Assembly: GCA_027923505.1 (NCBI GenBank)
Contig: BROI01000025.1
Location: 372,001-436,000, forward strand
From: Mayamaea pseudoterrestris
Lineage: Eukaryota
DNA: 64,000 nucleotides
Direction of reading: 5' to 3'
Made by a program: the position numbers and the translations under genes. The notes under the pieces are model-generated. The model was not told the origin of the DNA, did no database searches, and saw only the letters and a program-made list of their open reading frames with translations. Shown here piece by piece: positions 40,259-52,376 of this stretch (position 1 is the stretch's first letter; each line of letters begins with the position of its first letter).

Positions 40259-41651
40259 TTACGATGGCGGATGCTGATCCTCCAGCGAGCGACGAATCGC
40301 CTCGGCAATCATTTCCTCCTCCGTCAACTCTTGATCTGATGCCCCGCCAGGTTGGCGAGGAGCTGCATTCCTATTGGCAATGTTGCTTTCACCAGCAGCC
40401 GACGGCATCATGCTTGCAAAGCCGCCAACCGGCATCCCCATGGCTTGCATTTGCTGCATGGCTCGAGGATCCTGCATCATGGCTTGCATTCGCTGCATGG
40501 CTTGAGGGTCCTGCATGAGCTGCGTCATTTGCGCAAGCATTTGCGGATTGTTGGCCATTTGCTGAAACGCTTGCCGCATCATGGGATTGTTGGCGACTCG
40601 AGGATCATTCATCATCATGTTTTGAATCATGGGATTCTGTGAATACAAGACAAGAGAGGGTAAGAATGGAAACGTTGTATCGAATCAAGACGCATTACAT
40701 CATGTGTTTATTTACCTGCATCATGCTTTGCAACAAGGCTGGATCACGCATAATTGCCGCTTGAATATTATTCATGTCGGGCGGCATATTTGCTCCCAAA
40801 CCCGGCAATCCTCCTCCCGGTGGCAACAAGGATGGTAAACCAGTCGCTCCTGCAGGAGCCAAGGGCATGTTGCTAGTAATGTTTCGCGCCGCATTGACTT
40901 GCTGGACGGCTCGCTCAACCTTGGTTTTGGTTTCCTGCAGCTTTTGCCAAGCGTCGGCATTGGCATGCATAACGTAGACTGGCGCTCCACTTTCCGCGTC
41001 CGTCTCGCTGACAAAGCCGGCGGCAAGCAAGACAGCATCCCCTCCCACTAGATTTCCAAGGCGACGTGCAAAGGCTGGATTCTCCTTCTTGACGCGTCTA
41101 TATTTTTCCTCCAATGGGTGCTCCAAAATATTGAAAAGCAATTTATCCAAAACTTGTACTGCCGTTTGATAGTCGGCTGGAGAGTTGGATGCTCGCATGG
41201 CTTGCAGAGCGGCAAGGAGAGGATCGTTTGGTGTCAATGGTTGCGCTGTAACGGCGGCTGCTGCTACCGATGGAAATCTAATGGGAGCAGGGGCCGTCAT
41301 CATGCTGGCGGAAGCGACTGGTAGAGTCGCGGCTGCAGCTGATACTGCAGAATTCACTTCTTGAGTAGTAACGGCAGTAGCAGACTCTGCCTGGACAGCA
41401 GGTTTTCCCATACAGTGAAGTACACTTCCATCCTCCATTTTGTATTCTTGAACAGCAATTTTCGTTGCATCGCTTGCGATCAATCGACCACGAAAAATTA
41501 GCTTGAGCGTTCCAGGTGGGATCTTGGTGCTATCGCTAACGCGCTTCAATAAATCTAGCGCTGAAATATTGCTAGGGACTTGGATAGGGACCCGAGGCGA
41601 TCCTTCCGCTCCTGTAACACTCAAGTGAATGGTAATCTCGTCGTTGCTCAT
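40259..41651 (-). CDS. Ubiquilin-like adaptor: UBL + PUB + STI1-like + UIM, 2 exons
   Basis: UBL (LKLIFRGRLI), PUB (KLLFNILEHPLEEKYRRVKKENPAF...LLAAGF), M/Q/N/P-rich STI1-like repeats, UIM (TEEEMIAEAIRRSL). Intron 40715-40637 (79 nt). Confidence 0.85.
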
Positions 41652-41903
41652 GGTCGCTTCCGTCGCCTTCCCCGTTCGCTCGATTGCTTTTGTGGAAGCT
41701 GCAGCGCGCGCACGCGATGCAGCGCGATTTGCGGTAAAACCGCTACGACATACCGGTACTAAAATCTTTGCGCAGAACGCGATTGCTCCTACCGTCAGCA
41801 GGGCGGCTTTGCATCTCGTGGATCAGAGCTATGGCAAGCTACAATTTTTAAAAAATGCGTCCGACCCTTTCAACAATTCTGCAAACTCTATCATTCTATC
41901 ATT

Positions 41904-44692
41904 TTACCGTATTTCCATTACTTTGATCTTGGCAGACGACGATATCTTGAGCTCAAAACTCGCAATTTTGCCGCGATCATAGTTTGTCACTAGCAGCGTG
42001 TAAGTGCCATGAGGCAGCAGCTGGCGTTCCGACGCGACAAAACCATGGCGATACTTGCCAGTGTCAATGATTGGTTTCACGACATTTGATGCAGTAACAG
42101 CCTGTCCATAAGCCGCGACTGGGACCAGTATGAAACAAATGGCGCTTGTACGAATCGTCGTGACCGTAATCTGGATCATTGATCCGCCCGTCGGAGTCGC
42201 CAAGGCAAACTGGGGGTTATTGTAGGCGTACTTGGTACCTAATGCTCCGCCGGCCTTTTCGTCCGTCCATTGAGAGAACAGTTCGATGCAAAGTGGTAGA
42301 TCCTTTGGCGGGCGCGTCAAGATGAATGGCTCTGTGCAGAAGCACGACAAGGTATAATTCAAGTCGTTTGACTTTTTGTATTGCGACAGTATCAGCGAAA
42401 GAAATTGATCCTCTTGCCCTTGGAGGTCGTAGCGAACAAGTACATGCGGATTGTTTGTATATGCACCAGTCAGAATGCAGTCGCCGCCCTTGCCGGCGTA
42501 CCAGATTCTATTCTTTTGTTCCGTGTTTCGATGGACATGGACAGTGAGATAGTCATTTACCTCTATCCCTTCTTGCTCTTGCTTGTCAACGTGGCGTGAC
42601 GCAAGGATCCAAACCGTTGGTTGTCGCCTTGCTGCAGCCTCCGAAAAGGCGACTATGTACTGTGGGTTCTCGCCAACGTTAAACGAGTCATCGTCCGGAG
42701 CCACGTTTCGAGGCCAGCGCCCATGACGAACCACGCGATGGTTAAAGAGCCGAGGATTCCACGACAAGTGGAAGTTATGGAAGTGAGTGAGAAGATCCTC
42801 CCAAGATATCCAAAAGACGCCATCCTCTTTGCACTTGCCACCCTTACTTGGTTTGTAGCCAACCTCAGCGCATAAGGAAGGCGTCCAGCTATCAGTATCA
42901 GAGCTGCTGTACTTTCCCTTCCACTCCTGCTGGCCCCATGGATTCTTGAGCAGCAGCAGTCGTGTTCCATTCGTTGTTTGGACGACATTCAGCACAGCAT
43001 ACGCATGCTGTGTAACTATGCCGTTGTCCAACACCATTTCCTCCCGACCGTCCGCCGTTCCCTTGCTTGCGGTTGTTGAGACTGTCACGAGGCAATCCCC
43101 AAACGCACTTGCTCCAAAGATGCGGTCCCAGACTCGCTCTGGTGCTGTTTCATAGTCTCGCACGTTGGAAGCATCCGAAGCAAAGAGGACTCGCTCTGGA
43201 ATCCAGCCAGTGAGCGAGAAAAGATCGACGCCACTGTTGGAACCAGGAAAGTCGTAGCCGCCGCATAGTTTCATGTACGCCTTTTCGATCAATGGAACCC
43301 AAAGCTCCAAACTTCGCGGCTGCTGCTGATTGGTAATTGCACTAAACGTGGAGACACTGCACAAAAGGTTGCCGTACTTGTCAACTGGCAAGTAGTCGTC
43401 AATAACGACGCATCGTGGCACTCCATTGAACCACAGCTTGACCATGTACTTGCCCGTCGGGCTGACTATTGGATAAATTCTCGAGGCGCCGGCAACTGAT
43501 GACTGCCTTTGCGGATGGAGCATGCTTGAAACAATTTGCGTTCCAAACCGTCGTTCCAATGCGGCGCAGATACAAAGACTGGCTATAAACGAACAGTCGG
43601 TAACATATTGCTGCGTAATGGAAAATGGTGTCATGTTTTGAATCACTCGGATGGAAATTGATTGCTGAGATGCATGCATGCGTAGTTGTTGTTGTCGCAG
43701 ATGGATAATTTCGCAAGGTCTTGCCCACTTGTAAAAATGCTTTTGCTGGCGTGCATTGAGGCGTAGATGACCTTGTGGATCCTTGTACAAGTTTAACTTT
43801 TGTTGGCTTGATAAAGTTGATACAGATTCTCTCGAAAATTGGTTTGCCTCCTCATCGGACCACGGAAGAAACAAGCCGCTGGCCATGAGTGAGGATTGCT
43901 TCAACACTTGCACTTCCTCTGATGACAGTTTACTGCTGGATGCTGGTATTGAAGGCAATGGTGCAGGTATCTCTGCTGACTTGGTAATTGTTGTATTAGA
44001 ATGTTTCAATTGCTCAATGCGATCAAGTGTTTGCTCGAGTCGTCGCTTCCATGTGACAAGGTTTACTTGATTGCCTATTGCTTTCGCATGAATCTGAATC
44101 GCCTGCAGATAAAGTTCGGCCGCCTGCATGTAGGCTTGAATTATGGCTTCCTTCTTATCGCTGGTTGTAGATTGTCGTTGCTGCTTTTCGTCTATATCGA
44201 TAGCGATTAAGAGTTTGGCATTAGCTTGAGTGGCGAGCGTTAGTGCCTGCGAGGAAACAACTGGAACTGTAGGAGTTGCTGCAGGAAAGAATGCCTGCTC
44301 TGAAGTCTGTAAAGAAACGGGAGACCTCGGACTCATGTTGTTATATTTTAACTTGTTCCGCGACGCATCCGACGAGTCATCGTTGACAAGTTCCTTGGCA
44401 ATGCCTTCATAGTGGGTCGCCTTTTCCGTGAGCAAGCGTCGCGTATTTGCATACTGAGGAGTGACTGGAAGATGCTGCACATGGGTTCGAATCAAGTAAA
44501 CTGCTTCATAGTACTGCTCAATAAATTAAGATTGTATGAGGAATAAAGCATTGCTTTCGTGTCACAAAGTTGCTCATTCGTGCTCACCTTGGTGGCGGCT
44601 TCAATCCGCTGCGTCCCAGACTCTTCCAATGTATTCGCCAGTTTCAAGAGATCAAATATGTCTTCAAGAGTACCGGAAGATGCAGCTGCCAT
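41904..44692 (-). CDS. CAPN7: Calpain-7/PalB-like cysteine protease (MIT-like region, CysPc, two calpain-III domains), 2 exons
   Basis: Catalytic QQYVTDCSF, HAY and NPWG; LIEKAYMKL; GGYDFPGSNS; N-terminal MIT-like helices. Exon 1 44692-44588, intron 44587-44514 (74 nt). Confidence 0.9.
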
Positions 44693-45099
44693 AATTGCAA
44701 TGTGTAATGGAGATCATTGTTTGTCGTCTTGGTCTTGATACTGCTATAGAAGTAAGCAAAAGCATCACAATGCTGCACCATGATGCTGACGACGAGGTTT
44801 CGCTGCTGTTTTGTACTATTGCCTGATGACGCAGATTCAATATTGCCTATCACTTTGTGCTGTTTGATCTACAGTGCCAAATCATGAGTATCAAACTTAT
44901 TGGCACTACTTTTAGACTCACAGTGCCATAAACTTTGAAATATATCAAAGTTTTTGGCACTACACTTTGTTCAACAGTCGATTCATCACTCCGACATGGT
45001 TGACGACCAACCATTATTATTTCGTTTCGTTCCATTGCACATCACTTTCTTCTTTCAAGCAAAAGCAACAGCAGCTATACACCCAAAAGCACTAACATC

Positions 45100-46947
45100 A
45101 TGGCGGAACAAGTCCAGGCAATTTTAGACGGCATGGTTGCGCCGCTGCGGGACTTGGAGGAGCGCAAAGTCTTTTCTTCCGACGAGATTCGATCCATTGT
45201 GAATCGGCGTCGAACCTCAGAGTACGCCCTGCAGCGTCGGAAAGCTCGACAAGCCGACTATATTGAATACATTCAGCAAGAAATTCAATTAGAGAAACTG
45301 CGAGCGCTTCGAGTCAAGCGAATCAAGCGCCAGCAGCCTCATGACGAAACGACGCAGCAAGGAGCAACGACAAGGTTCATTGGCGACAAGCACATTGGCT
45401 CTCACATTCATTTCATTTGGACACGAACCATTCGCAAGTTTCGGAGTGACATGGCAGTCTATCTCATGTATGCCGAGTATTTGGAGGAGACGAAAAATTA
45501 CAACAAACTGTCGCTGCTGTATGCGCAAGCCCTGCAGCTCTTTCCACGCGAAACTGGACTTTGGATCAATGCGGCGTCGCACGAGTACTTTGTGGCTGGA
45601 AATATGCAGTCGGCTCGAGTTTTGCTGCAGCGAGGCCTGAGAATCAATCCAACGTCGCAAGAGCTTTGGGTACAATCCTTTGTTTTGGAAATGCACGTTG
45701 TCCAAAAGATGCAAGGGCGAGAAGCTATTTTGCGAGGTGGCGGCGATGTTGTAGCTAATGGATCAATCGACATTCTAATTGACGAAAATCATCCACTGGC
45801 ACTCTCCAAACTTGTCTATGATCATGCCATACAAAAGATTACAGACAAGGTGTCCTTTCGACTGGCGTTTCTACAGCAGTGCAGCTTGTTTCCAAACACA
45901 CAAGCCTTGGCGCAACACATTTTGCAATCCATTATCAAGGATTGTGGTAATCAACCAGATGCTTGGATCGTCAAGGCCATGTATATTTTACAGCAGGAGC
46001 AAGTAAAACATGTAGTTGAGCCTGTTGATGATGCAGGTCCAGTCAGCAAGAAGCAGCGAATGGACGATGCAAATGGATCGTCATTGTCGCCTAGTAGAAC
46101 CATCGATGCAGTTCGGCAGGTGCTTTTGGAAGCGACGCAGCAACTGGCAACGACGGAAATGTATACACGAATTTTGCAGTACTTGAAGGAACTGGTGGAA
46201 GAAGGCAAGGAGGAGAGTGATGGAGTGATACAACTTGCCAAGCAGTTTGTGAATCAAGCGTCGGACGACGGAATGTTGTCGAATGACTTAATCATGGCGT
46301 ACGCAGCCTTGGTTGTAGAAGGCGACGATGAGCATGTTGGTCAACTCATTGAACGTTTTCAGCAAACGTCCGAAAAAATTACAGCCTCGTTATGGCTACA
46401 GCTTGCGCAATCAGCAGCTTCCGTCGAACAAGCAATCGTCATTCTTGAGCGTGGGCTAGAAGCAACTCCAATGGTACAATCGGACCATTTGATTCTTCTT
46501 CTGCAACTACTCGGAGCCAAGCTAAAGCTTCATTCGATTAGTATGGGGGACTTGTTGCGAACTCAGGAGCGCATACTATACTTGGCGCCTGGGTTCGTGA
46601 ATGTTGGTGACAACGACGACGCGCCGTTTGGAATCATCAACGTCATGGATGCGTGTTTGCAATGTTTGATGCATGTTTGGAAGCATGATGGACTCGGCGC
46701 TGCACGCAAAGCGTACTTGAACGTTTTATTTCAAGCAAATACTGCCAAACTATACATGCGAGACGGCTCCGACCATGTTAAGGAATACTTGGATGCGGCG
46801 ATCAGTATCGAGACAAATTGCCAAGACGTCATTGACCGTCAACGACGTCTAGCGCGAATCTTTTCGTATGCATTGGAACTATTCGCCGGTACGGAAATTG
46901 GCAAGGAATATCGGAAGCTTTCGTTGGAAGCAAAACAAGACAGGTGA
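45100..46947 (+). CDS. UTP6: U3 snoRNA-associated protein 6 (possibly spliced to the downstream JmjC ORF)
   Basis: N-terminus MAEQVQ..LD.MV..L.DL....FS..EI..IV.RR...EY.L.R and HAT repeats (LWINAASHEY...SARVLLQRGLRINP). Confidence 0.9.
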   Translation: MAEQVQAILDGMVAPLRDLEERKVFSSDEIRSIVNRRRTSEYALQRRKARQADYIEYIQQEIQLEKLRALRVKRIKRQQPHDETTQQGATTRFIGDKHIGSHIHFIWTRTIRKFRSDMAVYLMYAEYLEETKNYNKLSLLYAQALQLFPRETGLWINAASHEYFVAGNMQSARVLLQRGLRINPTSQELWVQSFVLEMHVVQKMQGREAILRGGGDVVANGSIDILIDENHPLALSKLVYDHAIQKITDKVSFRLAFLQQCSLFPNTQALAQHILQSIIKDCGNQPDAWIVKAMYILQQEQVKHVVEPVDDAGPVSKKQRMDDANGSSLSPSRTIDAVRQVLLEATQQLATTEMYTRILQYLKELVEEGKEESDGVIQLAKQFVNQASDDGMLSNDLIMAYAALVVEGDDEHVGQLIERFQQTSEKITASLWLQLAQSAASVEQAIVILERGLEATPMVQSDHLILLLQLLGAKLKLHSISMGDLLRTQERILYLAPGFVNVGDNDDAPFGIINVMDACLQCLMHVWKHDGLGAARKAYLNVLFQANTAKLYMRDGSDHVKEYLDAAISIETNCQDVIDRQRRLARIFSYALELFAGTEIGKEYRKLSLEAKQDR

Positions 46948-46985
46948 GAGGATGATCTACGCTTCGCTGCTACACTAGACTTGAC

Positions 46986-48095
46986 ATGACTGTCTGCTCA
47001 CCAACATCATATTGCGCTTCTGGTAGAGATGTCGCTGTTAATGGAGTCAAGGAAGTCCTTTCGGGCGCACCCATCGTGCCGAGTATGGATGTTTCGTCGT
47101 CGGACTTCTCACCGATAGCGTTTGCTACGACTTTTGACTTGTTCAAATTAGTGCATTTGCGCAACCTTTCACATAAAAGCAAGAGTCGCAATGCTATTTC
47201 CTGGCAGAACTTGGCATTAATCTACGACACTATCAATGCCGACGACCAGGCGACTTGGTGCGTGGAAACGAAGGAAGACGACTCCATGGAGGTATCTCCG
47301 GCAACCTTTTTGAGTGGCAATGGCGATGCGGTCCGTGCCTACTGCAGTTTTCTTGTACAAAATGACAAAACTGTTTTGGAAGACACGTTGGCGAGACTTC
47401 CAGTACAAGAGATTGATTGTCTGCAGGACTGCACATACGAGGACGCGCTGTGGTTTTTCTTTGGCCGCAATCCTCGCGTCAAGGGCGCTTTGAATCTCAG
47501 CGGCAGATCAGAGCATACTGATTCCGTTTCACATGATGGAACTTGGCACTACCAACTTTCAGGTAGCAAGATTTGGGAGCTGCGGGCCTCGTCCTGCATG
47601 AAGCGCCACTTGGATCAGCATTTTGCTTGTGGCTGGGACGAGTCAAAGCGTTTGGTGGTAAAGGTGGAACAGGGTGATGTGTTGGTTATCAATACTCGCC
47701 TTTGGTTCCACCAGACGATAATTCCTCCGCAGCGTGTTCCTTCCGTCTCGTATGCTCGCGATTTTTGCTTTGATAATAATGCATCGGACAAAATGAATAG
47801 CACCCACATGACGAACGTTGACGGTATGTATGCGACCTCGGATATAGAGGAAGGTACTATTCTGTTTCGCGAGGCCGATATGCCCTCCTGTGAACTGCAC
47901 CGTGCAACTAATGACGCAGATGCAAATTGCGATGTGGTGGAATTGGAAGATGGGACGAGTGCTGTTGTCAGCACGAGGAAAATTGCGGCTGGTGAGTTCT
48001 TTAGCGTCCCAGAGAGCGACGACGAAAGTGGCGACGGCGACGAGAGTGATACGGTTGAAGACGACGAGTCGGCCGCTGACGAAGATAGCAATTAA
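46986..48095 (+). CDS. JmjC/cupin 2-oxoglutarate-Fe(II) oxygenase-like domain plus a degenerate SET-like domain
   Basis: HTD...WHYQLSGSKIW...VEQGDVLVINTRLWFH gives the HxD..H triad and 2OG Lys. GMYATSDIEEGTILF ... ANC ... VSTRKIAAGEFF is SET-like. Acidic tail. May be exon 2 of UTP6. Confidence 0.7.
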   Translation: MTVCSPTSYCASGRDVAVNGVKEVLSGAPIVPSMDVSSSDFSPIAFATTFDLFKLVHLRNLSHKSKSRNAISWQNLALIYDTINADDQATWCVETKEDDSMEVSPATFLSGNGDAVRAYCSFLVQNDKTVLEDTLARLPVQEIDCLQDCTYEDALWFFFGRNPRVKGALNLSGRSEHTDSVSHDGTWHYQLSGSKIWELRASSCMKRHLDQHFACGWDESKRLVVKVEQGDVLVINTRLWFHQTIIPPQRVPSVSYARDFCFDNNASDKMNSTHMTNVDGMYATSDIEEGTILFREADMPSCELHRATNDADANCDVVELEDGTSAVVSTRKIAAGEFFSVPESDDESGDGDESDTVEDDESAADEDSN

Positions 48096-48333
48096 AAACA
48101 GTACTATACTTTAGTTGACTATATAGTCTTACTTATGTGGCAACTCATCATTTGATCGGCCTAATAGTCTACCGGTAGAGCAACGATGACGAAGAATCAC
48201 CGGGAGAAAGCTGAACGTCGCACACTCGTCGTAACGGCACTCGTCTCACAGCCAAGCAAAAATTGGATCGAAACCATGGCATGCCGCCGTTTCAAGGCAT
48301 CTCTCTCATTTTATTGACAGAGTCTTATTCACC

Positions 48334-50832
48334 ATGCCCAAGAAGCAAAAGCGCCCAATAGCTGCAGCGCCAGACCCAGATGATGATGACGATTCGTCAA
48401 TTGCTTCGGACGACGCCTTTGACTCGGAGGATGAGCGTCGCTACGGAAGCTTCTTTGAGGAGCGTGACAGGGCCAAGGCCGAGGGAGGTGACATGGATGA
48501 AGATTCAGAAGACGAAAGCGATGATGATGACAGCGACGTAGAAGATGTTGAAGAGAATGAAGTAGCTGACGAGGATGAGAGCGATGATGAAGACGACGAC
48601 GATGACGACAGCGAAAGCGACGCTGAAGATGAAGAAGGAGATGGCGGGGACTACATGCTCAGTCTGCTCGACAAGATTGATGACAAGAAGCGCAGCCACA
48701 AAGACGAAGATCCGTCGCATGGAATTGCTACTCACACCAAGGAATCAGAGTTCGCAGCGTCCGTCTTGAAAAAGGGAGACTTGACCCTCGACGCGTTGAT
48801 GGGATCCATTCAAGATACGGCTGGCTACGGCAAGGTGCAAAAGCAACTGAAACATGTAGCGCACGGCGAAGCAACATCAGCTCCAGTGGCTCGCATAATA
48901 TCAGAGCGCATCCAGCGCAAGATTGACTACGAGGAGCAGTGCAAGGAAGTGAGTCAGTGGATGACGGCCGTCCAGCAGAATCGTCAAGCCGAAACGCTAG
49001 ACTTTCGACCCAAGCAGCGCCTGCAAGTGACGCAGCAAGGTTTGGTGGATGGTTTTGTACCCACGACAGACTTTGAAAAGCAGATTCATGCAGCCTTGCA
49101 AAAGGCTGGTCAAGAGGATGAGGAGACGGTTTTAAAGCGAGAGCGCGACCGCCTCCAGGACGACTTGGATGCCAATGAGATTACGATGGATGAGTACAAG
49201 AAGCGTCGAAGTGACTTGGCGCAAATGCGAGCCCTCATGTTCTATCACGAGCAAAAGCGTCATCATATCAACAAGATCAAGTCGAAAAAGTACCGTCGCA
49301 TCCGGAAGCGGCAGCGCGAGCGTCTGCAAGGTGACGAGGCGGAGTTAGACGCGGATGCGTTGAAGGAGCAAGAGGAAGTGGAGCGCATTAAGGAGCGCGC
49401 CAGCTTGGCTCATAAAAACACCAGCAAATGGGCTAAGCGAGTTCTCAAGCGAGGCAACAAGGTGGACGTGAATACTCGCAAGGCGTTGTCGGAATCCTTG
49501 CGCCGAGGCGACGACCTGCTTAAGCGCATGAAGAGCACACGTGGTGGTGACGAGTCATCCGACTCGGAGAGCGAAGATCTGGTGGCGTCAGCCAAGGCTG
49601 TATTGGCCAATATGGATGACGATAATGATGTTGTTCCCAGTGGTAAAGGCAACGCGCTGTTTCAAATGGCTTTTATGCAAAAAGGCATTGAAAAACAGAA
49701 GGCTCGCGCTCGTGAGGAAGCTCGGGAGCTTCTAAAGGAATTAGAAGCAGAGGAGCGTGATAGTTCATCGGACGCTGAGGAACAGGGCGCAGATCTGGCG
49801 CCAGTAAAGAAAATTCGAATGTCGAGCAAGGCTGAGATGAAAAATGTACTGCGAGAGAGTGAACTTGTTGTTGCGTCGCTGAAACTCGGGCAGAAGCATC
49901 AAGTCGCTGTTAGTGGTCATATCGACATTGGTATGGACGAGAACCGGACAGTTCCTGCCGGGAAGGTTGAAGGAGCCAAGAATACTACTTTGAGTGAGCA
50001 TAGTGTCACACTCGATCAGTTGGAAGTTGTGGCCGACGTTTCATCTTCGTCAAGGAAGCAGGATGCACCAAAGCGGCCGGCCGCTACTCAATCTCGCCTT
50101 GTTGCTGATGCCGATGAAGTCAACCCTTGGCTAGCAGATCAAACAGATAACGTGACGAACAAGAAGGCGACAAAAAAGATGGGCAATGCTTTACGCGGTA
50201 TGGTTGATGTTGAGAGCGCAGTCGACCTACTCGAGGCGGCTCCGACAAGGGCAACTACTATAGCTGCTGCAACGGCAACCGTCGACAACAGTACTAGCAA
50301 GGCAATCACGAGCCTGTCACAAGGCGAGCTTGTCCGTCGTGCATTTGCTTCCGTGGCGGATCTAGAGGAAGATGACTTTCAGAAGGAGAAGGTTAGAGTG
50401 GCGGAGCAAGAAGATCCTACTCGAAAGCAGCTACAGGCAAGCGCGAAACTGGCTGCATCCAAGGGATGGGGCTCTTGGACCGGTGCAGGTGCTCCACCGC
50501 CAAAGCCTCCTCGCACAATGCCAAAGAGGCTTCAGCCGCCGGAAAAGACATTAGGAAAGCGGGCGCGGGCGGACGAGAAGAAGCCCAATGTAATATTGAG
50601 CGAGAAGCGAATGAAGCGACTTGCAAACAATTACATGCTTGCTGCTGTTCCGTACCCTTTCACATCGCGCGAAGAGTATGAAAAGGCAATGTCTGGAAGT
50701 CTAGGTAAGGAATTTAATGTGACTGGGGCATTCAAGGAGATGACTCGCCCAGCAGTCATGACCAGGCCAGGCAAGGTTATACAGCCCATTTCCAAAACAG
50801 TCAAGGTTAGGAGAAGCGCTGCAAAGTTCTAG
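48334..50832 (+). CDS. UTP14: U3 snoRNA-associated protein 14
   Basis: RALMFYHEQK..HINKIKSKKYRR, ERIKERASLAHKNTSKWAK, GWGSWTG, VPYPFTSREEYE...LGKEFN. Confidence 0.93.
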   Translation: MPKKQKRPIAAAPDPDDDDDSSIASDDAFDSEDERRYGSFFEERDRAKAEGGDMDEDSEDESDDDDSDVEDVEENEVADEDESDDEDDDDDDSESDAEDEEGDGGDYMLSLLDKIDDKKRSHKDEDPSHGIATHTKESEFAASVLKKGDLTLDALMGSIQDTAGYGKVQKQLKHVAHGEATSAPVARIISERIQRKIDYEEQCKEVSQWMTAVQQNRQAETLDFRPKQRLQVTQQGLVDGFVPTTDFEKQIHAALQKAGQEDEETVLKRERDRLQDDLDANEITMDEYKKRRSDLAQMRALMFYHEQKRHHINKIKSKKYRRIRKRQRERLQGDEAELDADALKEQEEVERIKERASLAHKNTSKWAKRVLKRGNKVDVNTRKALSESLRRGDDLLKRMKSTRGGDESSDSESEDLVASAKAVLANMDDDNDVVPSGKGNALFQMAFMQKGIEKQKARAREEARELLKELEAEERDSSSDAEEQGADLAPVKKIRMSSKAEMKNVLRESELVVASLKLGQKHQVAVSGHIDIGMDENRTVPAGKVEGAKNTTLSEHSVTLDQLEVVADVSSSSRKQDAPKRPAATQSRLVADADEVNPWLADQTDNVTNKKATKKMGNALRGMVDVESAVDLLEAAPTRATTIAAATATVDNSTSKAITSLSQGELVRRAFASVADLEEDDFQKEKVRVAEQEDPTRKQLQASAKLAASKGWGSWTGAGAPPPKPPRTMPKRLQPPEKTLGKRARADEKKPNVILSEKRMKRLANNYMLAAVPYPFTSREEYEKAMSGSLGKEFNVTGAFKEMTRPAVMTRPGKVIQPISKTVKVRRSAAKF

Positions 50833-50939
50833 CAACTGAGCGGGTCGCTTGACTTGATTTTGTAGCAAACAAAGTAAACGTAAAAGTTTTTAAAAGTTAC
50901 GTAATAGTTAATTTAGCGTGCCAAAAATCAAAATATAAA

Positions 50940-52376
50940 TTACGGCGTCACCTCTTGACAAAATTGAGTTTCCTTCATAAACGTCGAGCCGGACATGAAC
51001 ATGGCGCGATGCTTTTGAATTTGATCAAAGTTGGTCGCGTACATGCCATAGCGGTTTCCACATGCTGCTTCAATCTCCTGCGAAGACAGTTCACCAAACG
51101 AGTGTTGCTGCGCCTTGCGGTTGCCATTGTGCGGTAGCTGCAACTGATGACTCGGCAACCAACAATCGCAAGCGTCCATTTGACAGTTGATATTGTTGCG
51201 GACGCAAAAGCAGTCGGCGTGACAGCAAGGTTCATTCTGTACGGCTTGATGCAGAATCGTCTCCAATTCTTCGCGCGACGGTGCACTTTCGTGAGGCAGC
51301 AAATGACGCTTGCGAAGCTCCTTTTTCAAGTCGTTTATGTTCAAGCGCTTGGCTTGCGCCTTTTTGCTCGTGCCGAGTGAGCTGCCAACGTGAACGACCA
51401 GCTTGCGACAGTTGCATCCGGCTCGTTGACTGCGACTGTTGCGGAGCTCCTCCAGCTGGTTGCGAACGGCATTGACATCCAGTTGCGTAAAGGTTTCATT
51501 GAATTGTTGCTCCGTCGTTGAGTGCGGTGCCGTGGGTCGCGTGCGACGCGTGGAATTAATCACCTCCCCCGACGACGAGAACGATCCCGACCGCGCGCGA
51601 TGCTTGCGAGGCGCAAGTCGCGGAGGAGAGCCGGAGAGTTGCGGCTGCAGTACGGCATCGTGTCCATCTCCATCTTCGTCGTGCTCCGCCGACGAGTAGT
51701 TCAAAAACAGCTGCCGGCGCAAGTTTTCCGTCAAACTTCCAAAGAGTGGATTCTTGTGATTGCTGCTGCGATAGTCCCATTGCCGCGTTTCAAGTACTCT
51801 TGTAGATGAGCCATTGGTATGAATTGGCGACGTCGCTGAGTCATCATCATCATCGTCTACTTTTAATTGCGCGAGTCGTTCCTGCAGACGCTCCTGCTTG
51901 GCTTGCTCATAGTCGTCTACTGAGACATTTGAAATTTCCAACACCTCGTCGTTCAATCCCAATGGCCAGGAACCAGAGGCTGGAACACCGTCCACACCCA
52001 AGCAGCGATCCATGCTTTTAACGGTGACATTGCCAAAGCTTAAACTGCAGTTGCGTTGTTGAGTTGACTCGACGGCGCGCTTGGTGCGCTTGTTTTTGCG
52101 GCGCTGGCGGCGCTTGGCCGAAGTACTTGTTGGTGGCGTCGCATGCGGCTGCTGCTCGTCTTGATCGTCGTCTTCGTCATCATGATCGTCATTGCTACTA
52201 CTGCTACTGTTTGATGGCGACTCTAGCAGGGTCGGAGGTGAATGAACCGTCGTTGCAACAGTTTTCGTCGTCAAGGAAGAAGAGGAGTTGATGTTGTCGT
52301 CGTCCGAGTCAATTTCGGAGTCATAATCATCGAACTTCCACAGGTACGACTTGGAAGGCGGCGGAGGCGGCGGCAT
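50940..52376 (-). CDS. CSRNP/AXUD1-like cysteine/serine-rich nuclear protein
   Basis: LSFGNVTV..MDR.LG.DGVP.SG..PLGL and LEELRNSR...GCNC...CC...C.C....INCQMD.CDC...CGN match the CSRNP conserved blocks. Ser-rich N-terminus and basic NLS. Confidence 0.7.
   Translation of the reverse strand: MPPPPPPSKSYLWKFDDYDSEIDSDDDNINSSSSLTTKTVATTVHSPPTLLESPSNSSSSSNDDHDDEDDDQDEQQPHATPPTSTSAKRRQRRKNKRTKRAVESTQQRNCSLSFGNVTVKSMDRCLGVDGVPASGSWPLGLNDEVLEISNVSVDDYEQAKQERLQERLAQLKVDDDDDDSATSPIHTNGSSTRVLETRQWDYRSSNHKNPLFGSLTENLRRQLFLNYSSAEHDEDGDGHDAVLQPQLSGSPPRLAPRKHRARSGSFSSSGEVINSTRRTRPTAPHSTTEQQFNETFTQLDVNAVRNQLEELRNSRSQRAGCNCRKLVVHVGSSLGTSKKAQAKRLNINDLKKELRKRHLLPHESAPSREELETILHQAVQNEPCCHADCFCVRNNINCQMDACDCWLPSHQLQLPHNGNRKAQQHSFGELSSQEIEAACGNRYGMYATNFDQIQKHRAMFMSGSTFMKETQFCQEVTP

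Follow-up and report, generated by a model that had tools for sequence, protein, structure and literature searches.

A UTP6 gene of the diatom Mayamaea pseudoterrestris probably continues through a junction intron into a JmjC-type and SET-like module

Introduction

Among the targets known for JmjC hydroxylases are ribosomal proteins and translation factors, and we know of none of these enzymes that forms part of a ribosome-assembly factor. Here we describe a gene of the diatom Mayamaea pseudoterrestris in which an enzyme-like fold of this kind appears to be joined to UTP6, a subunit of the UTP-B module of the small-subunit (SSU) processome. The gene occupies positions 45100-48095 on the forward (+) strand of a stretch of 64,000 nucleotides (nt) from assembly GCA_027923505.1 (contig BROI01000025.1, positions 372,001 to 436,000); this whole stretch is called the window below, and all coordinates are counted within it. 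We read 45100-48095 as a single two-exon gene that encodes UTP6 followed by a JmjC-type fold, a truncated SET-like module and an acidic tail, and we put the probability of this gene structure and of these domain identities at about 0.8.

The closest described systems on the enzyme side are the ribosomal oxygenases NO66/RIOX1, MINA53/RIOX2 and bacterial YcfD, which, going by the titles of their PDB entries, hydroxylate the ribosomal proteins L8, L27a and L16, and which we take to be defined as a group by the dimerisation and winged-helix domains that follow the JmjC fold. Exon 2 has the JmjC-type double-stranded beta-helix in common with them (VIA-align Z 10.6-11.8), and JmjC_2, which is matched by 12 of the 74 members of the exon-2 family, is the Pfam model of the NO66/MINA/YcfD group. 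The differences are considerable, however: in exon 2 the fold is followed by the SET-like module and the acidic tail, with no space for dimerisation or winged-helix domains, and sequence identity is 14-18%; the ribosomal oxygenases are free proteins acting on large-subunit proteins, whereas the exon-2 domain is fused to an assembly factor, UTP6, that serves small-subunit biogenesis. According to a passage of a survey of the JmjC family (PMC2938197), NO66 and MINA are nucleolar. JMJD5, JMJD7, JMJD6, TYW5 and FIH match the fold equally well or better (195-213 residues) and share the HxD...H pattern, probably together with the lysine, but they are only 11-18% identical and have neither the SET-like C-terminal module nor a UTP6 fusion.

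On the assembly-factor side, canonical UTP6 shares with exon 1 the U3_assoc_6 domain, the HAT repeats and a helical C-terminal solenoid; the M. pseudoterrestris protein differs by an enzyme-like C-terminal extension of 355 residues. For the last part of that extension the nearest described domains are the SET domains of MLL5/KMT2E and KMT2C; the G-x-Y-A..DI..G and PNC...G-E-F-F segments of this part align weakly with SET-N and SET-C, and the SET-I insert is missing from exon 2; the MLL5 SET domain is itself presumably inactive. The same order of UTP6, JmjC and SET-like parts is found in two deposited proteins, GAX11651.1 and ACA910_021339, whose records read no more than 'U3 small nucleolar RNA-associated protein 6' or 'hypothetical protein' and leave the enzyme-like module at the C-terminus without annotation.

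Results

The UTP6 reading frame ends inside the donor of an 83-nt intron

The UTP6 open reading frame (ORF) runs from an ATG at 45100 to a TGA at 46945-46947, and its end reads CAA GAC AG/GTGAGA, where the slash marks the exon border and the GT falls at 46944-46945. Downstream, a second frame stays open over 46956-48095; its first in-frame ATG, at 46986, comes 38 nt past the UTP6 stop. When 46944-47026 (83 nt) is excised, the two frames join into a coding sequence of 2913 nt with one terminal stop, the junction ..AKQD-R-DVAVNG and a product of 970 amino acids (aa), which is identical at 970/970 residues to a deposited protein of the same species (P0003, hypothetical protein MPSEU_000983900). 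The M. pseudoterrestris gene models were built with funannotate from RNA-seq reads, as a passage of the genome publication states (PMC9724779). The initial annotation, made from the letters of the window, had placed the TGA inside a splice donor, which is correct to the base; the CTCAC site and the pyrimidine-rich TAG acceptor that it named are both present, the latter as ..CTTCTGGTAG ending at 47026, and its forecast of an 83-nt intron and a product of about 970 aa agrees exactly with the deposited model.

An enumeration of every possible in-frame GT..AG intron of 50-200 nt around the stop gave two, of 83 nt and 140 nt, and only the former has a pyrimidine tract. The 140-nt alternative (46944-47083) is in frame, but it was rejected for lacking such a tract and for conflicting with P0003. 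With a GTAA or GTGA donor (NN/G TRA), a phase-2 intron always puts a stop codon at the exon border; the TGA inside the donor thus comes with the intron and is no signal in itself. An Rfam scan of 44500-48400 found nothing in the intron; its one match, to a microRNA, stayed below threshold at 20.8 bits (threshold 69 bits). A small nucleolar RNA hosted by the intron was therefore no longer considered.

Contigs of public runs

Contigs of four public runs of one study (X1 to X4, library kind not on record) were placed on 41500-51000 at 90% likeness, and the joint 46943^47027, whose search had been proposed as a check of the intron, is found in contigs of X2 and X3. In one X3 contig (depth 2, with 41 letters on its shorter side) precisely 46944-47026 is missing, a gap of 83 nt bordered by GT..AG. 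One X2 contig starts at 47025 and carries 30 loose letters upstream, 24 of which, judged by eye, match the window at 46912-46941, the end of exon 1. Both contigs represent a diverged variant in which the reading frame is kept. In addition, the calpain gene next door has a minus-strand GT..AG intron at 44514-44587, and X2 and X4 contigs lack these 74 nt, which are bordered by CT..AC as read on the forward strand; such runs therefore behave like RNA assemblies, and the local intron size to which the initial annotation had appealed is borne out by the same 74 nt. The depth of X1 is even, at 21-55 except in one of the 30 bins (44670-44986, where it is 147); its contigs contain the intron without either joint, and the run looks like DNA. 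In one X1 variant a single nucleotide is deleted at 47011, between the ATG at 46986 and the acceptor; as the deletion lies downstream of that ATG, an ORF begun there would be frameshifted in this variant.

Fused relatives share the junction intron

A protein search with the downstream ORF found 15 longer relatives, 9 of which (P0003 included) carry the UTP6 domain PF08640, and a further one, P0009, aligns with the C-terminal half of UTP6. Most relatives are metagenome sequences. Fusions of the kind that had been suggested for a search of other diatoms were found in Fistulifera solaris, Epithemia clementina and further relatives. The F. solaris protein GAX11651.1 (952 aa) is fused and 38% identical over its full length, in 982 alignment columns, and the E. 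clementina protein (P0012, ACA910_021339) has PF08640 and the C-domain, as we call the JmjC-SET-like part that corresponds to exon 2. In two further relatives the reading is uninterrupted across the junction (P0006, 975 aa on a contig of 3064 nt; P0020, 646 aa on a contig of 2063 nt), and on contigs this short there is no room for an intergenic gap. Identity among the fused proteins is 49-55% in the C-domain and 20-45% in the UTP6 part.

F. solaris also has a plain 622-aa UTP6 model, GAX20701.1; of its two models one is thus fused (P0354, 952 aa) and the other plain (P0352, 622 aa). A C-domain protein of 307 aa, P0215, is apparently on the same metagenome contig as P0303, a plain UTP6 that is near-identical. 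The contrast probably reflects splicing that was called differently in homeologous copies.

The genomic arrangement was followed in 80 related metagenome loci, 27 of which have at least 2900 nt upstream of the C-domain. UTP6 lies directly upstream on the same strand in three of these long loci (L002, L003 and L055) and in a shorter one, L001; in the other 24 of the 27, several of which are near-identical copies, it was not found by tblastn (E <= 1e-5) or by the UTP6 hidden Markov model (E <= 0.01). All four linked loci have an in-frame GT..AG intron of 83, 83, 84 or 74 nt at the junction, and in all four the UTP6 frame stops in or just past a G/GTAAA donor, with an immediate TAA in L001, L002 and L055 and a stop two codons later in L003. 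The C-domain frame of L001 has no in-frame ATG at its start. Beyond the splice sites the intron sequence is not conserved, and the alignment of five introns has no shared element.

The initial annotation knew of no description of the architecture. A literature search returned no paper that combines UTP6 and JmjC, and papers found for UTP6 and diatoms concern, by title and abstract, unrelated topics only (Skeletonema proteomics, Aspergillus). The available portion of the JmjC survey has no passage on 'HAT repeat', and the sole SET-domain passage in that portion is a list of JMJD2/KDM4 fusions (PMC2938197). Fused models are, on the other hand, already public as MPSEU_000983900, GAX11651.1 and ACA910_021339, so that the gene exists as a record and its architecture has apparently never been discussed in print.

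Exon 1 encodes a complete UTP6

U3_assoc_6 (PF08640) is matched at residues 9-82 with 81.4 bits (cutoff 24.7, E 4.4e-23) and is followed by repeats that match TPR_14 (43.5 bits, cutoff 23.5, E 2.5e-11) and HAT_PRP39_N (32.4 bits, cutoff 27.7, E 1.2e-7), all of them above the Pfam cutoffs, as expected if the initial annotation was right to call this a UTP6 with HAT repeats. Exon 1 aligns end to end with the stand-alone UTP6 of diatoms, an oomycete and a green alga. In the structure model of the full-length protein (96 aligned sequences) the mean predicted local distance difference test score (pLDDT) is 89.9 and the predicted template modelling score (pTM) is 0.62, and the UTP6 part is an all-helical solenoid of high pLDDT. 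Low confidence is confined to residues 315-323, 616-621 and 949-970, with values under 50 in the latter two segments. The second of the three directly follows the exon junction at residue 615, and the intron therefore marks what is modelled as a flexible stretch that links two well-folded modules. Utp6 of yeast and Chaetomium binds Utp18 with its N-terminal region, and a C-terminal addition to UTP6 that is tolerated fits this arrangement. From orthology, we infer that the protein is located in UTP-B or the 90S pre-ribosome through its UTP6 part.

Exon 2 has a predicted JmjC-type fold with an invariant HxD...H and lysine pattern

A profile search of PDB sequences returned no JmjC entry, only three weak KMT2C SET matches (E 0.06-0.1), and fold searches were needed for this reason. 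Built with 74 aligned relatives, the AlphaFold model of exon 2 reaches an average pLDDT of 88.9; searched against the PDB, it gave at least 500 Foldseek matches at E <= 0.001, headed by NO66 (4y3o_B, E 7.8e-8, TMq 0.40) and followed at E 1e-7 to 2e-6 by JMJD7, TYW5, JMJD5, MINA53 and FIH. VIA-align, run over 48,161 chains, aligned 195-220 residues to JmjC chains, with Z of 13.1 for JMJD3, 13.0 for JMJD5, 12.8 for TYW5, 12.5 for JMJD7, 12.3 for JMJD6, 11.9 for FIH, 11.8 for YcfD and 10.6 for NO66. These model-based matches are essentially tied and do not separate the subfamily.

The residues H163, D165, K181 and H228 of exon 2 are invariant in 74/74 aligned family members, stand-alone ones included, in an arrangement that JmjC hydroxylases typically show; K181 stands within a G-x-K-x-W strand and may be the equivalent of the 2-oxoglutarate-binding lysine of FIH/JMJD6-type enzymes. 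Across the 74 members, Pfam detects JmjC_2 in the 12 already mentioned (E <= 0.01, best 1.1e-6), Cupin_8 in one and the JmjC model PF02373 in none. Structure prediction, which had been put forward as a check on the joined protein, yields confident models of exon 2 and of the whole protein, with a JmjC fold in exon 2, and the assignment to JmjC is supported by that fold and by the invariant HxD...H and lysine. The narrower likeness to NO66/MINA/YcfD fares less well: NO66 is indeed the top Foldseek match, but it is statistically tied with JMJD7, TYW5, JMJD5 and FIH.

A truncated SET-like module and an acidic tail

The module behind the JmjC-type fold matches the MLL5 SET domain (5ht6_B) in VIA-align with Z 9.9 and a root-mean-square deviation of 1.5 A over 62 of 109 residues, the middle part of the SET domain being missing. 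The family profile is weakly similar to the C-terminal part of the KMT2C SET domain (E 0.06), and 6 of the 74 family members match Pfam SET at E <= 0.01, the best at 4.1e-4. In SET methyltransferases NHSC is the cofactor motif and a C-terminal tyrosine is catalytic. In the KMT2C profile alignment the Asn-His of NHSC is replaced by His-Arg, and the ..DY end is aligned to ..ES in the family consensus. The 'SET' of the initial annotation stands, then, as a truncated SET-like fold over 62 residues, but with the canonical motifs replaced and a Pfam score below threshold it is probably not a methyltransferase.

Distribution of linked and stand-alone forms

The stand-alone JmjC-SET-like family comprises 553 clusters at E <= 0.001, mostly of 300-470 aa; a separate protein-cluster search re-found only a diatom cluster, along with generic JmjC/Cupin_8 clusters. 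A quick maximum-likelihood tree was built from 56 C-domain rows, namely the window, 10 fused proteins, 6 proteins taken to share a contig with a UTP6 model (links deduced from equal contig sizes alone), 11 named or long relatives, the 4 adjacent loci and the 24 loci in which UTP6 was not found upstream; the remaining 52 of the 80 loci had too little upstream sequence and were not included. Of the 21 UTP6-linked rows, 20 fall in one set of 22 rows (Shimodaira-Hasegawa-like approximate likelihood ratio test, SH-aLRT, 95), and on this clustering the fusion would have a single origin: a JmjC-SET-like gene would have been captured downstream of UTP6, with the junction turning into an intron. The other two rows of the set are sisters, Seminavis robusta P0250 (400 aa) and L005 (UTP6 not within 6000 nt upstream), which may represent a secondary separation, or fission, of the fusion. 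One row taken to share a contig, P0245, falls outside the linked set, as do Cyclotella atomus (Thalassiosirales), Asterionellopsis glacialis, chlorarachniophytes and Tetraselmis; in A. glacialis UTP6 and the C-domain are on separate MMETSP transcripts. The named fused species span three orders of Bacillariophyceae (Sellaphorales, Naviculales and Surirellales). As far as these sequences go, forms linked to UTP6 group together in a single clade of raphid pennate diatoms, and the JmjC-SET-like protein is found alone in centric and araphid diatoms and in other algae.

Many stand-alone C-domain proteins of about 300-400 aa (for example P0187, P0189, P0204, P0206 and P0250) bear the name 'U3 small nucleolar RNA-associated protein 6' or, as Seminavis robusta P0250 does, 'UTP6 ... 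homolog'. Their alignment is confined to the JmjC-SET-like part, they contain no UTP6 sequence, and the name was probably carried over from fused entries such as Fistulifera GAX11651.1. Five long C-domain relatives of 647-763 aa (P0013-P0017, from Amorphochlora, Chlorarachnion, Tetraselmis and others) have an additional 300-400 residues; no Pfam match at E <= 0.01 and no UTP6 part was found in these proteins.

Features of the locus and its neighbours

The features of the gene are collected in Table 1.

Table 1. Coordinates of the proposed UTP6-JmjC-SET-like gene in the window, with the basis of each assignment (a slash marks a splice border)
Feature	Position	Strand	Basis
Exon 1, complete UTP6, 615 codons (the last one split)	45100..46943	+	Pfam and full-length model
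83-nt phase-2 GT..AG intron, donor CAG/GTGAGA, CTCAC at 46997-47001, acceptor ..CTTCTGGTAG/	46944..47026	+	Sequence, spliced coding sequence equal to P0003, contigs, relatives
TGA in the UTP6 frame upon intron retention, would end a plain 615-aa UTP6	46945..46947	+	ORF reading
In-frame ATG of the downstream frame, within the intron, probably not a conserved start	46986..46988	+	L001 has no equivalent; X1 indel
Exon 2: short linker, JmjC-type domain, SET-like module, acidic tail, TAA stop (48093-48095)	47027..48095	+	Spliced coding sequence and models
JmjC-type double-stranded beta-helix, residues ~10-262 of exon 2	47055..47813	+	VIA-align, Foldseek
His-Thr-Asp (H163, D165), HxD, proposed Fe(II) ligands	47514..47522	+	Invariant 74/74
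Lys181 in G-S-K-I-W, proposed 2-oxoglutarate C5-carboxylate ligand	47568..47570	+	Invariant 74/74
His228 in W-F-H-Q-T, proposed distal Fe(II) ligand	47709..47711	+	Invariant 74/74
Truncated SET-like module, residues 265-331 of exon 2	47820..48020	+	MLL5 fold match
Acidic low-confidence C-terminal tail (to exon 2 residue 355)	48024..48092	+	pLDDT <50 at 949-970

Downstream on the same strand, 238 nt past the stop of the fusion gene, lies a gene for another SSU-processome factor, Utp14 (48334-50832, PF04615, E 1.6e-126); this adjacency was found in none of the 80 related loci. Upstream, on the minus strand, is a calpain-family protease gene (41904-44716, Peptidase_C2 E 1.2e-38) with its 74-nt GT..AG intron at 44514-44587. 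The stretch 44670-44986 between the calpain gene and UTP6 has an X1 depth spike (147 against about 40), a contig joint that goes back 34 nt, several loose ends at 44922-44979 and the repeated words ..TTGGCACTAC.. and ..CAGTGCCA.., which together suggest a dispersed short repeat or a small inverted-repeat element. The X1 contigs on 41500-51000 fall into two classes, 50 at 99% likeness to the window or above and 38 at 90-95%, often in the same place (for example 43445-43868), which suggests two diverged haplotypes or strains.

Discussion

If the fusion works as its parts suggest, the UTP-B module of the SSU processome would have an active protein hydroxylase permanently attached to it, and during 40S biogenesis this enzyme would modify an assembly factor or a ribosomal protein. 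The SET-like piece, which lacks methyltransferase motifs, would then serve as a substrate- or peptide-binding module, and retention of the intron would give plain UTP6. That an active hydroxylase acts on the pre-40S particle or the processome is a tentative proposal, to which we would give somewhat poorer than even odds, and it is to be kept apart from the gene structure and the domain identities, in which we have much more confidence.

Several observations weigh against our interpretation. The direct splice evidence is thin, consisting of one low-depth X3 contig and one X2 loose end, contigs and not reads, from a single study, and these contigs differ from the window near the junction and so come from a diverged allele or strain. 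P0003 is the only Mayamaea-named match in a protein search that was limited to shared words, and the genome may hold a second, plain UTP6 copy. The protein of the window is below the Pfam thresholds for both JmjC_2 (12.4 against 22 bits, E 0.12) and SET (12.9 against 22.4 bits, E 0.15). With a full-length pTM of 0.62, no defined packing between the domains is predicted, and in the fold search the lysine demethylases JMJD3/KDM6B, PHF2 and KDM7A score equally with hydroxylases. Finally, Seminavis robusta P0250 and L005 appear unlinked although they sit inside the fused clade, and the UTP6 tether is therefore not indispensable.

One alternative is that UTP6 and a JmjC-SET-like gene with its start at ATG 46986 are neighbours but distinct genes, and that the fused model and contigs are rare read-through or an annotation merge. 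The downstream frame does have that ATG, and databases list C-domain proteins of about 350 aa and UTP6 proteins of about 600 aa separately, some apparently on one contig (P0287/P0181, P0303/P0215); the plain 622-aa GAX20701.1 of Fistulifera and the different transcripts of Asterionellopsis glacialis point the same way. Most of these split models, however, come from metagenome gene callers, which we believe do not model introns, and an in-frame junction intron is present in 4/4 adjacent loci, where chance would join the frames in about 1/3 of cases each. The C-domain of L001 has no ATG to start from, the indel at 47011 would frameshift an ORF begun at 46986, and the ORFs of P0006 and P0020 cross the junction on short contigs. 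The stop-to-ATG gap is, moreover, merely 38 nt, a distance that the initial annotation gave correctly, although its argument that this is too close for separate genes is weaker than it seemed, as Utp14 starts only 238 nt past the stop of the fusion gene. We consider two genes very improbable. A different proposal, compatible with a single two-exon gene, is that intron retention is regulated, the form ending at TGA 46945-46947 supplying canonical UTP6 and the fusion being minor or condition-specific. An immediate stop behind a complete UTP6 whose end matches the ends of stand-alone UTP6 proteins would suit such a switch, as would the presence of that stop in 4/4 relatives and of the intron in X1 contigs, though X1 looks like DNA. 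But a phase-2 GTRA donor produces the stop automatically, so that it is no evidence of selection, the intron sequence is unconserved beyond the splice sites, and the donor and acceptor are near consensus; we regard such a switch as unlikely.

The function of exon 2 admits rivals as well, and the one with most in its favour places the C-terminal module on chromatin, for example as a JmjC lysine demethylase with a SET-like histone-tail binder that would reach ribosomal DNA through the co-transcriptional binding of UTP-B. JMJD3/KDM6B is the top VIA-align row (Z 13.1), PHF2, KDM7A and KDM2A come within about 1.5 Z of the hydroxylases, and the SET fold is typical of histone methyltransferases. The metal motif is nevertheless HxD, as in the hydroxylase-type enzymes among the matches, whereas many demethylase families use HxE according to a table of the JmjC survey (PMC2938197); the Pfam matches of the family are to JmjC_2, the NO66/MINA/YcfD model (12/74), and never to PF02373 (0/74), and the SET-like piece lacks the canonical motifs. 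A role on chromatin thus seems to us a little less likely even than a retention switch. That the JmjC-like domain is catalytically dead and only extends the UTP6 solenoid structurally would agree with a window protein that stays under the Pfam thresholds, but it sits badly with a HxD...H triad and lysine that are invariant in 74/74 members, stand-alone ones included, and with a C-domain that is more conserved than the UTP6 part; we find it no more credible than two separate genes.

The widest claim that may be drawn from a fused UTP6-JmjC-SET-like gene is doubtful, and we offer it as a speculation: raphid pennate diatoms would have hard-wired an active hydroxylase, dependent on Fe(II), 2-oxoglutarate and O2, onto the UTP-B scaffold, and the fusion would reveal the orphan JmjC-SET-like family of 553 clusters as a processome or ribosome hydroxylase in other algae. 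If this were true, a supply of iron, oxygen and 2-oxoglutarate would be directly required for an early step in the assembly of 40S, or for a mark on a small-subunit protein; diatom growth is limited by iron and carbon/nitrogen status, to which ribosome production would thereby be coupled. On the practical side, the fusion has probably spread a wrong UTP6 name to many stand-alone C-domain proteins. Kept across at least three raphid diatom orders, the fusion may also be read as a 'Rosetta stone', one that points a widespread algal JmjC-SET-like family to small-subunit biogenesis.

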